Source of the DNA: a virus
Lineage: Duplodnaviria; Heunggongvirae; Uroviricota; Caudoviricetes
Virus record (IMG/VR): IMGVR_UViG_2713896785_000008
Reading direction: 5' to 3' (one strand)
DNA: 4,803 nucleotides
Part shown: positions 2,379-4,786 of the stretch, in pieces
How positions within the stretch are numbered: the first letter of the stretch is position 1
Layout of the letters: each line of letters begins with the position of its first letter
Translations under genes and position numbers: made by a program
The notes under the pieces: generated by a model
Databases searched by the model: none
What the model saw: only the letters and a program-made list of their open reading frames with translations
Told to the model about the DNA's origin: nothing

Positions 2379-2701
2379 ACTTTCAGGCCCCTCTCATGTA
2401 ACCAGTGGGTTGCACGCAGCCTTGCGTTTTCCTCACCGGCAAGCAGTGAGTGGATAATCCCGACCGCCTCGCTGTCGTCGTCCTTCACCGCGGTATGAAG
2501 CGTTATCCCCCGGGCCACGCCACGCTTTATCGTGATGACGCCTTTTTTCTCCAGTGCGCGAAGATGCTCTACCGCTGCATTCACTGAACGGTATCCCAGC
2601 ATGGTTGCCACCTCCTGATTGGTTGGCGGAAAGCCACGCTCTTTCTGATAAGAAATCAGCATATCCAGCACCTGCTGCTGGCATTGAGTTAATGTCGTCA
2701 T
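2375..2701 (-). CDS. LexA-like DNA-binding protein: LexA N-terminal winged-helix domain only, no S24 peptidase domain
   Basis: 108-aa ORF. MTTLTQCQQQVLDMLISYQKERGFPPTNQEVATMLGYRSVNAAVEHLRALEKKGVITIKRGVARGITL aligns from residue 1 with the LexA DNA-binding domain as I recall it ([68 protein letters not shown]), including the recognition helix RS-NAA-EHL-AL-KG. The remaining ~40 aa are unrelated and there is no Ala-Gly cleavage site or Ser/Lys dyad region. ATG overlaps the methyltransferase stop (ATGA at 2698-2701). Confidence 0.75.
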   Translation of the reverse strand: MTTLTQCQQQVLDMLISYQKERGFPPTNQEVATMLGYRSVNAAVEHLRALEKKGVITIKRGVARGITLHTAVKDDDSEAVGIIHSLLAGEENARLRATHWLHERGLKV

Positions 2702-3351
2702 GCCGCCATCTCCCTGACCAGTTTTTCCGCCTGCTGGCGAACCTGCGCCAGAAACGCCTCACCACATGCCTCAAGTTCATCGCGCCCAATGTAGCTGATT
2801 GCCGGTCCCTTCCAGGTCTTGTCAAAAACAGCAATAGCACCAGCGAAAAAAGCTCCTGTCGGTACCTGCTTCTCGTCTTTCGGGATAAACCAGACAGGCA
2901 GTTCAAAACCAATACGCCCGCGAATAAAAGCAATATGATCTGCATCTTCCGGCCACCACACTTCGCTGGTGGCAGCTTTGATCAGGAAAACATAGCGNCC
3001 GCCCTTATCACGCATGGCACTGGCATGNTTCATGATGTAACGCATGCCGGTGATGTATTGCCCCTCATGCTGACTGGCGCGGCTGTATGGAGGATTACCA
3101 AAGGCAGCACCTTTAAGCTCCGCAAGGCGTTCTGACCAGTCATGCGCCAGCGCGTTGTCTTCCGCCGTGTAATACGCGGCACATTTGGCGTTATCACCGT
3201 CAGTGAACAGATCCAGAACAAACGGACCAAACAGGGTGTTAATTCCCCAGAAAATGTTATCCGGCGTGCGCCACTGATCTCCCACTTCCTTCAGTTCATG
3301 GGCTGGTTTATTCCGCAGTTCCACCAGCGCCTGGCAATATTTATTACTCAT
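2698..3351 (-). CDS. Phage-type DNA N6-adenine methyltransferase (Dam-like), orphan
   Basis: 217-aa ORF with the NPPY motif IV (…AAFGNPPYSRAS…) typical of amino-methyltransferases. ATG 3351-3349 preceded by GGGGG, overlapping the upstream TAA (TAATG). Two ambiguous bases (2998, 3028) give X in the translation. No restriction endonuclease partner in the window. Confidence 0.8.
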   Translation of the reverse strand: MSNKYCQALVELRNKPAHELKEVGDQWRTPDNIFWGINTLFGPFVLDLFTDGDNAKCAAYYTAEDNALAHDWSERLAELKGAAFGNPPYSRASQHEGQYITGMRYIMXHASAMRDKGXRYVFLIKAATSEVWWPEDADHIAFIRGRIGFELPVWFIPKDEKQVPTGAFFAGAIAVFDKTWKGPAISYIGRDELEACGEAFLAQVRQQAEKLVREMAA

Positions 3352-3443
3352 TAAGCCCCCACGTAAAAAGCATCCGCAATGTCTCCGGAAGTACAGCCCG
3401 GATGGGCTTCAATGAATTTCTGAACGTCATTTAACAGACTCAT
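3351..3443 (-). CDS. Small ORF (30 aa, MSLLNDVQKFIEAHPGCTSGDIADAFYVGA) translationally coupled between the rep and methyltransferase genes
   Basis: ATG 3443-3441 lies 2 nt after the rep TGA (3448-3446) and is preceded by GGGGGTGA. Its TAA (3353-3351) overlaps the methyltransferase ATG (TAATG). Codon usage looks typical (CTG, GAC, CAG, GAA, CCG, GGC). Too short for the ORF track. Confidence 0.3.
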   Translation of the reverse strand: MSLLNDVQKFIEAHPGCTSGDIADAFYVGA

Positions 3444-3445
3444 GA

Positions 3446-4438
3446 TCACCCCCTGAATCCTGCCGGGATCTGGCTGTAGTCCACGTTGTCGTAACTGGCT
3501 TTGAAGTACGGGTCTTCACGTTTTTCTGTGTGCGTGCTGACGGACGGCGATAAGCGCAGGGAAAGCTCATCCCATTTTTCCCGCAACTTCGACGGGCTGA
3601 GCACGTTACGGCACCAGAACGGATCGCGGCTGACGCGGCTGTACATCTCGCAGATTTGTTTGTGAGTACGACCATCCTGCACACACATCAGGCGAATTTC
3701 GTTTGCCCATGCTGTCCAGTTCGGTTCTTTGGGACGAACCACCTCGCCGTCACATTCGGCGGCCTGCTCGTACAGGGCGATGATTTTTTTCCAGAGCCAC
3801 TGTGCGCAGGTCAAATCATCCTGCGTTCCCCACTGGCGCTTTTTAGGGCTGAATACAACCGCATCAGGATGGCGAGTTAAAAACTCCTGTTCAGCCGTTT
3901 GCGTGTCCGGTTGCGAAGCGTCCGGACGAGAAGAGGTTTTATTCTCTGTAGTAATCTCTGTTGTATTCTCTGTAAGATCATTGGGCCATTTTGACCCGAT
4001 GACAGCGTGTCGTTTTGAACCAATGGATCGTATCATTTTGCGCCCATCCATCAGGTCACTTTGACCCGATGGAGAAGTGCATTTTGACCTGATGGATTCG
4101 TTCACTTTGACCTCTTCTAAAAGCTCACTTTCATAGTTGATCGTGTAGAAGTTGGTCATGTCACGCTTCGATTTATTGAGTTGCTCGCGACGCAAAACCC
4201 CAAGTGATTTCAGGCTTGCAAATGTGCGTTTCAGAGTGGACTCTGACCAGAACGGAAACTGCTCCAGCCACTGTTCTGTCGTGTTATAAACCCAGCGAAT
4301 TCCGCCATGCTCAGTGCCTGAATTCGTTTCATTCAGCCAGTAATGAAGCTGCTGCAACACAATTGCCTCATTCAGACCAATACGGCATGCAAGATCACGA
4401 TTTATCACAATGGGCTGGGATGTCATTAACAGGCTCAT
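3446..4438 (-). CDS. Phage replication initiator (replisome-organizer type: N-terminal DNA-binding domain plus conserved phage C-terminal domain; lambda O-like role)
   Basis: 330-aa ORF. ATG 4438-4436 preceded by GAGG at a 6-nt spacer. N-terminal ...PIVINRDLACRIGLNEAIVLQQLHYWL... is the characteristic replisome-organizer N-terminal motif as I recall it. An iteron array and AT-rich tract lie within the gene, as in lambda O. Confidence 0.8.
   Translation of the reverse strand: MSLLMTSQPIVINRDLACRIGLNEAIVLQQLHYWLNETNSGTEHGGIRWVYNTTEQWLEQFPFWSESTLKRTFASLKSLGVLRREQLNKSKRDMTNFYTINYESELLEEVKVNESIRSKCTSPSGQSDLMDGRKMIRSIGSKRHAVIGSKWPNDLTENTTEITTENKTSSRPDASQPDTQTAEQEFLTRHPDAVVFSPKKRQWGTQDDLTCAQWLWKKIIALYEQAAECDGEVVRPKEPNWTAWANEIRLMCVQDGRTHKQICEMYSRVSRDPFWCRNVLSPSKLREKWDELSLRLSPSVSTHTEKREDPYFKASYDNVDYSQIPAGFRG
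3936..3985. other. AT-rich tract flanking the iterons (putative DNA unwinding element of the origin)
   Basis: About 70% A+T with three TCTCTGT copies, immediately downstream of the iterons in the direction of rep transcription, matching lambda ori layout (iterons then AT-rich region). Confidence 0.45.
3987..4114. repeat. Iteron array: six direct repeats at 23-24 bp spacing, consensus CAYTTTGACCYGATGGA (putative origin of replication)
   Basis: Copies at 3987-4003 (cattttgacccgatgac), 4011-4027 (cgttttgaaccaatgga), 4034-4050 (degenerate), 4057-4073 (cactttgacccgatgga), 4080-4096 (cattttgacctgatgga) and 4103-4114 (cactttgacctc, partial). They sit in the linker-coding part of the rep gene. Confidence 0.65.
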
Positions 4439-4447
4439 GACCGACCT

Positions 4448-4786
4448 CTATTTCCCTGAATTTACGACGAAACTGTTCGAGCGGACTGAAGCATTCATGT
4501 TCATAGCCTTCACGGAGGTAGATAACCCGTTGTGTTTCCGGCTCCCAACGAATGACTCTGACGGGCACTCCGTAGTGATCTTTGAACCAGCGGTTAACTT
4601 GTCGCAAAGGACTGTCTCCTTCTGCCGGTTGAAATCACCCACAGCCCACTCTGCAAAGCTGTGGGTTACAATTTCCCTGTCACCTGGTACATTCACTGCA
4701 TAGCAATACTCCACCTTCGCTTTTCCACCCGGTACAGGAAGCGCAATCAGTTGCGAGCGACGGTAGTGTGTTGTTAAACTGTTCAT
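4448..4786 (-). CDS. Hypothetical protein upstream of rep (112 aa as drawn; frame of the 3' half uncertain)
   Basis: ATG 4786-4784 preceded by GGAGA at a 9-nt spacer. TAG stop 4450-4448 overlaps the rep RBS. The N-terminal ~58 aa look coding. The C-terminal half is Ser-rich and is overlapped by a more protein-like alternative frame (TTG 4607 to TGA 4395); see findings. Confidence 0.4.

Follow-up and report, generated by a model that had tools for sequence, protein, structure and literature searches.

Does a 30-codon open reading frame that fits exactly between two larger phage genes represent a gene, a translational device or the trace of something else? The window analyzed here (the whole stretch of 4,803 nucleotides from IMG/VR virus record IMGVR_UViG_2713896785_000008, a member of the Caudoviricetes) has all its genes on the minus strand, with the small ORF lying between a replication gene (rep) and an adenine methyltransferase gene (dam). 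An earlier note on this DNA had described the ORF as unannotated and unusually tidy for a chance frame, and proposed that it could encode a micro-protein or act mainly as a coupling leader that sets methyltransferase translation relative to rep. The genes concerned are:

3446..4438, minus strand: rep, whose 330-aa product is a lambda-O-like replication initiator; iterons lie within the gene (PHROG 391 "replication initiation O-like", E 7e-102)
3351..3443, minus strand: the 30-codon ORF, a putative gene remnant referred to hereafter as delta-yfdN (from the ORF list, the sequence and alignment with full-length yfdN)
2698..3351, minus strand: dam, encoding a phage N-6-adenine methyltransferase of the Dam family, 217 aa (PF05869, E 3e-45; TIGR01712, E 9e-76)

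The local geometry bears out what had first drawn attention to the ORF. Its ATG (3443-3441) is separated from the rep stop (TGA, 3448-3446) by a spacer of two bases (3445-3444), in agreement with the distance noted earlier; its 30 codons translate to MSLLNDVQKFIEAHPGCTSGDIADAFYVGA; and the last A of its stop (TAA, 3353-3351) is also the first base of the dam ATG (3351-3349), so that the TAATG overlap previously reported is present as described. The G-rich stretch in front of the ATG, which had been termed Shine-Dalgarno-like, is placed to pair strongly with the 3' end of 16S rRNA, its duplex of -10.7 kcal/mol ranking top among seven start sites of the window that we tested, and dam possesses a Shine-Dalgarno element of its own (GGGGG, -8.4 kcal/mol with the same 16S end) within the last codons of the ORF:

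3444..3454, minus strand: Shine-Dalgarno sequence AGGGGGTGATC for the ATG at 3443, including the rep TGA (3448-3446) (from the 16S duplex and comparison with full-length loci)
3349..3360, minus strand: GGGGGCTTAATG, which holds the dam Shine-Dalgarno GGGGG (3360-3356), the TAA of the ORF and the dam ATG (native 3' end of full-length yfdN)

There is a second in-frame candidate start, a GTG at 3449, for which the Shine-Dalgarno duplex reaches just -5.7 kcal/mol against -10.7 kcal/mol for the ATG at 3443. PGAP places the start of both yfdN and the remnant at this GTG, overlapping the rep stop (L001 3612-3695; L002 2612), whereas the annotators of phages SfII and SfV chose the ATG for yfdN; no spacing separates the GTG from the Shine-Dalgarno sequence, and for the ATG, which lies 6 nt further on, that sequence is ideal.

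The identity of the ORF is best described through what occupies the same slot in relatives. Related prophages and phages (SfII, SfV, mEp460, K-12 CPS-53 and others) carry between rep and dam a gene of the PerC family, yfdN, encoding 162 aa; in Shigella phage SfII it is annotated as a "PerC transcriptional activator family protein" (gp42), and in phage SfV as orf40. A 311-bp query around the ORF finds matches in 2680/5426 complete E. coli genomes, and most of its phage matches fall into two pieces spread over 707 bp, such that the relatives hold an extra 396 bp. The closest view of this difference is given by strain JNEC-KY178 (L002), whose rep protein is the same (WP_000054957.1) and whose rep-dam slot is filled by yfdN, a "PerC family transcriptional regulator" with the translation MSLLNDVQKFIEAHPGCTSGDIADAF-AGYSRQ...EEWYLSGN-YVGA* (162 aa counted from the ATG). 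Base-by-base comparison with the window (311 versus 707 nt) yields a left match that runs to the F26 codon and a right match that begins at the Y159 codon, the two overlapping by a single nucleotide (T) of microhomology. The difference is in frame and lies on a codon boundary:

3365..3366, minus strand: deletion junction, at which 396 bp (132 codons, residues 27-158) are absent (from comparison with full-length yfdN)

Codons 1-26 of the ORF are thus the N-terminus of yfdN and codons 27-30 (YVGA) its last four, all of them identical in protein to JNEC-KY178 YfdN. Synteny gives the same assignment (O-like rep, slot, dam, lexA-like gene and rusA, as annotated in L001, L002, L003 and L005), and so do profile searches: residues 1-26 of the peptide, and those residues only, match PHROG 23071 (E 4.5e-13) and PHROG 1324 (E 7.5e-11), families that in the full-length protein span residues 1-103 (109 profile positions) and 1-161, respectively. 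The Pfam PerC domain (PF06069) occupies residues 98-149 of full-length YfdN (36.1 bits, the cutoff being 22.6) and lies wholly within the deleted block; correspondingly, the 30-aa product contains no PF06069 domain above the gathering score, and searches of Pfam (even at E 10) and NCBIfam returned no match to it. For the parent protein, residues 1-73 match nothing in Pfam, even at E 10, and a PDB sequence search with full-length YfdN returned nothing at E 10. Residues 6-68 match PHROG 1687 "MarR family" weakly (E 6.6e-5), and NCBIfam matches are all sub-threshold (the ANR family on the C-terminal part, BilQ, a MarR-type family, on residues 10-68); the PHROG 1687 and BilQ matches are hints that the YfdN N-terminal region may form a winged helix.

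Taken together, we conclude that the ORF is very probably the stump of the prophage regulator gene yfdN, left by a 396-bp in-frame internal deletion, and an ordinary remnant. The earlier suspicion that such a frame could hardly have arisen by chance was therefore well founded: its start and stop are genuine translation signals, and the frame begins and ends where a longer ancestral gene natively does. Indeed, the upstream context of the ATG, CAGGGGGTGATCATG, is the same in full-length yfdN loci, and the 3' end, TACGTGGGGGCTTAATG, is found in at least 72 full-length IMG/VR loci. The tidy fit of the ORF follows from the retention of these two native ends by an internal in-frame deletion. One illegitimate-recombination event at the 1-nt microhomology cut 396 bp from the middle of yfdN, joining codon 26 to the last four codons; the stump thereby retained the ribosome-binding site and start of its parent after the rep stop, together with the GGGGGCTTAATG end that supplies the ribosome-binding site and start of dam.

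The 3' junction is not particular to dam. In dam-bearing full-length loci, the ...GGGGGC(T/G)TAATG end runs into dam (ATGAGTAATAAA...), and in ~32 other loci (among L068-L187), from which dam is absent, the same end is joined directly to a lexA-like gene (ATGACGACGTTAAC...). Since the TAATG end is the same before either gene, it constitutes a standard module junction that carries the Shine-Dalgarno sequence and start of whichever gene follows; the TAATG motif is a recombination or module boundary.

We next consider whether the stump, whatever its origin, has acquired a role in dam expression. The geometry of a coupling leader is present in the remnant (its own start with the strong Shine-Dalgarno sequence noted above, and a stop overlapping the dam start), and lying in an early-right operon it is probably transcribed and translated to a 30-aa peptide, after which ribosomes ending at TAATG may re-initiate on dam much as they would after full-length yfdN, in a passive and inherited manner. 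Coupling is accordingly possible as an incidental, inherited property, as opposed to that of an evolved leader. The stronger proposal is that the stump became exapted, being kept because opening or loading of the dam ribosome-binding site requires its translation through to the TAATG, with the short ORF now tuning how much dam is made relative to rep; this we consider unlikely, and its corollary, that in-frame deletions were favored, equally so.

Several observations speak for exaptation, and others against it. The overlap and the strong Shine-Dalgarno sequence are simply the geometry of the parent yfdN, and dam has its own ribosome-binding site. That the deletion is in frame might seem telling; however, both other frames across the junction also reach dam, the +1 frame stopping 5 nt past the dam ATG (as in L140) and the +2 frame giving a fusion to dam (as in L157). 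Since ribosomes reach the dam start in any of the three frames, no special selection is required for the in-frame outcome; its prior is one in three, and the frame is no evidence of selection. Both reading frames are well preserved, the stump being intact in 63/63 copies and dam (217 aa) in 54/55 evaluable loci with the deletion. This intactness and the in-frame deletion are compatible with some retained role, to which so short an ORF in such similar copies adds almost no weight.

Two further features concern how dam would be expressed once the middle of yfdN is lost. The SfV record (L005) places a dam -35 (TTGCGC) and -10 (TACGGA) at 1976-2002, inside the 3' part of orf40/yfdN; these are author-annotated features with weak hexamers. 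The deletion removes this stretch, so dam would here depend on read-through transcription. In addition, the predicted unpaired probability of the dam ribosome-binding site is 0.22-0.39 in the deleted allele versus 0.49-0.54 in the full-length form, a loss of accessibility that could raise dependence on translation of the stump; against this, the fold predicted for the RNA of 3330-3470 does not exceed shuffled sequences in stability (z +0.36). On these predictions, the lost annotated promoter and the lower accessibility would lean weakly towards a coupling role. Conservation of the short form, which the earlier note had named as a check, fails in related prophages: the relatives differ by the 396-bp in-frame indel and encode the 162-aa protein, and the 30-codon form occurs solely with one junction (116 genomes, as against 2546 for the 162-aa gene).

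Within the same region, codons 10-14 of the remnant (UUCAUUGAAGCCC, 3405-3417) are largely complementary to the dam Shine-Dalgarno sequence and start (GGGGCUUAAUGAG, 3343-3359) on the minus strand, and the deletion brings these two elements from ~440 nt apart to ~45 nt. Their pairing appears in the minimum free energy fold, but since that fold is no better than those of shuffles, we do not put the pairing forward as a structure.

Co-option of the stump may also be framed more broadly, with its translation being needed to open the dam ribosome-binding site, or with the fragment interfering with the YfdN-type regulators of co-resident prophages; we regard co-option in this sense as quite improbable. 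Were the first of these to hold, dam output would be tied to rep translation. In its most literal form, that of a functional micro-protein, the 30-aa peptide would act alone, for instance as a dominant-negative on YfdN-type proteins of co-resident prophages. The setting for such an effect exists, in that the ORF is very likely translated (judging from its Shine-Dalgarno sequence), the module is present more than once in many genomes (at up to four places per genome), and the allele has been maintained in 116 complete genomes and across two genera. Other observations speak against it. The peptide lacks the PerC domain and, of an N-terminal region some 70-100 residues long, keeps roughly the first 26, covering just the first 26 positions of profiles of ~100 positions or more (PHROG 23071 has 109); neither Pfam nor NCBIfam matches it, and the PDB gave no hit with full-length YfdN; the cluster to which it belongs comprises 8 near-identical members, with no short-form family extending past the one junction; and its recurrent polymorphisms are all common to full-length alleles, with no selection specific to the short form visible. 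With the PerC domain and the greater part of the N-terminal region gone, the peptide is very likely inert, and the micro-protein originally suggested becomes highly improbable.

We therefore return to delta-yfdN as a deletion stump, and to its frequency and history. Among complete E. coli genomes, 2546/5426 hold the full-length region (counted where at least 80% of that region is present) and 116/5426 (~2%) the deletion junction (counted by junction-specific sequence). In IMG/VR, the deletion junction is present on 62 contigs and the left junction of the full-length form on at least 120; among deposited phage genomes, cdtI alone has the deletion junction. Phages at a greater distance also have the long form, for example Salmonella ST64B (84% identity). 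Given this majority, the divergent carriers, the single protein family running across the junction and the single junction of the short form, the long form can be placed as ancestral. The reverse polarity, in which the 30-codon ORF came first and the 396 bp are an in-frame insertion (a moron) that made yfdN, draws on the points that a two-allele comparison formally gives no polarity and that lambdoid genomes do acquire morons, but can be dismissed as having next to no probability, for it must accommodate a long form in the majority (2546 versus 116 genomes) and in phages as divergent as ST64B, profiles spanning the junction (PHROG 1324 over 1-161, PHROG 23071 over 1-103), an insertion that landed in frame and completed a domain, and one junction common to all short copies.

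All deleted copies evaluated display the same junction (63/63) and the same 30-codon ORF (63/63). Two different rep clusters are found in front of the short allele, both of them having full-length alleles too, and the short allele comprises 8 haplotypes in which most variable sites are synonymous (codons 3, 4, 15 and 16), with D6E and A30D as replacements. Three common haplotypes of codons 1-26, accounting for 57/63 deleted copies, are present among full-length alleles as well, and every polymorphism that recurs in the stump is found in full-length alleles; the pattern is therefore explained by selection acting on full-length yfdN. These alignments reveal no selection on the short form, a sample of similar 90-nt copies having little power to detect it. 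Recurrent independent deletion, considered as the main explanation for the several backgrounds, was rejected: the junction is identical in all copies, and a microhomology of a single nucleotide makes it unlikely that the same deletion arose repeatedly. The two rep types and several haplotypes are most simply accounted for by a single deletion and subsequent recombination in the flanking DNA, the deleted allele having presumably spread between prophages through such exchange. Flank recombination is normal for mosaic lambdoid prophages.

The deleted allele is now present in E. coli, Salmonella and phage cdtI. The last of these is listed as a temperate phage induced from bacteria (PMC8065619, Table 1), and since cdtI is inducible while carrying the deletion, loss of yfdN is compatible with a working phage. 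Other independent lesions, when considered with cdtI, make yfdN look dispensable. In one IMG/VR locus (L095), a deletion between yfdN RQAE and a QQAE near the end of dam has removed nearly all of dam and fused yfdN to the dam end; a second (L140) has a frameshift in the PerC region of yfdN; and in a third (L157), a frameshift near the yfdN 3' end has turned the two genes into one continuous YfdN-Dam fusion ORF. The gene for this PerC-family regulator thus appears to be not only dispensable but repeatedly damaged in these prophages.

In the cdtI record (L004, AB285204), dam is annotated at 2626-3324 from a CTG inside the remnant, 45 nt ahead of the conserved ATG; this start is almost certainly mis-called. 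The yfdN remnant carries no annotation in that record.

The ORF cannot be called unannotated elsewhere, as the earlier note had it. In strain 2013C-3264 (L001), whose sequence agrees fully with that of the window across the 311 bp compared, the RefSeq/PGAP entry for it is a pseudogene, [quoted passage not shown], and database records of E. coli and Salmonella, covering 108 contigs, include the exact 30-aa peptide under the name "hypothetical protein". Current annotation thus already flags it as an incomplete pseudogene.

Comparison with characterized systems helps to define what has been lost and what kept. The yfdN gene of K-12 CPS-53 and its counterparts SfII gp42, SfV orf40 and that of mEp460 occupy the slot of the remnant (rep - yfdN - dam - lexA-like - rusA), and share with it the Shine-Dalgarno and start context, the first 26 residues, the last four codons and the TAATG junction with dam; the remnant differs in the absence of 132 internal codons, including PerC (98-149), and the role of a PerC-type regulator is no longer possible for it. 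The PerC/Pch proteins of EPEC and EHEC (PerC, PchA-E) have Pfam PF06069 in common with the parent yfdN, while the stump is without this domain. In K-12, yfdN is the PerC homologue, and was deleted to provide a clean background in ler::lacZ assays; the more distant PchD and PchE, also homologues, scarcely influenced ler (PMC5931665). With respect to its junction, the remnant resembles the coupled, overlapping gene pairs (ATGA/TAATG) of lambdoid early operons, its stop likewise overlapping the next start; unlike purpose-made leader junctions, its TAATG comes from a gene of normal length that later lost its middle.

The locus carries little biological weight, being in all probability a real but ordinary in-frame deletion pseudogene. 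It does serve as a warning when genomes are scanned, in that two gene ends joined by an in-frame deletion may pass for a short ORF with perfect junctions; comparison with relatives reveals such stumps at once.

The surrounding operon is compact throughout. Stops and starts overlap or almost abut along the whole block of rep, stump, dam, lexA-like gene and rusA, with further ATGA overlaps at dam/lexA-like (2698-2701) and lexA-like/rusA (2375-2378); upstream, a DUF4222-type small gene (4395-4607, minus strand) overlaps the rep start by 44 nt. A promoter and terminator scan of 3200-3700 gave no promoter-like or terminator-like sites, and no Rfam family matched anywhere in the window. Runs of N (50 at 1326-1375 and 53 at 2264-2316, with single Ns at 2998 and 3028) disrupt a KilA-N-type gene, rusA and two dam codons, and appear to be masking in place of biology.

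Inside rep, five to six iteron-like repeats (CAYTTTGACCYGAT, read on the plus strand) are spaced at 23-24 nt across 3987-4112. Iterons within an O-like gene are the expected site of a lambdoid origin of replication. Adjoining them at 3940-3975 is a 12-nt unit resembling TATTCTCTGTAG, repeated three times in tandem, which codes for the rep stretch TENTTEITTEN.
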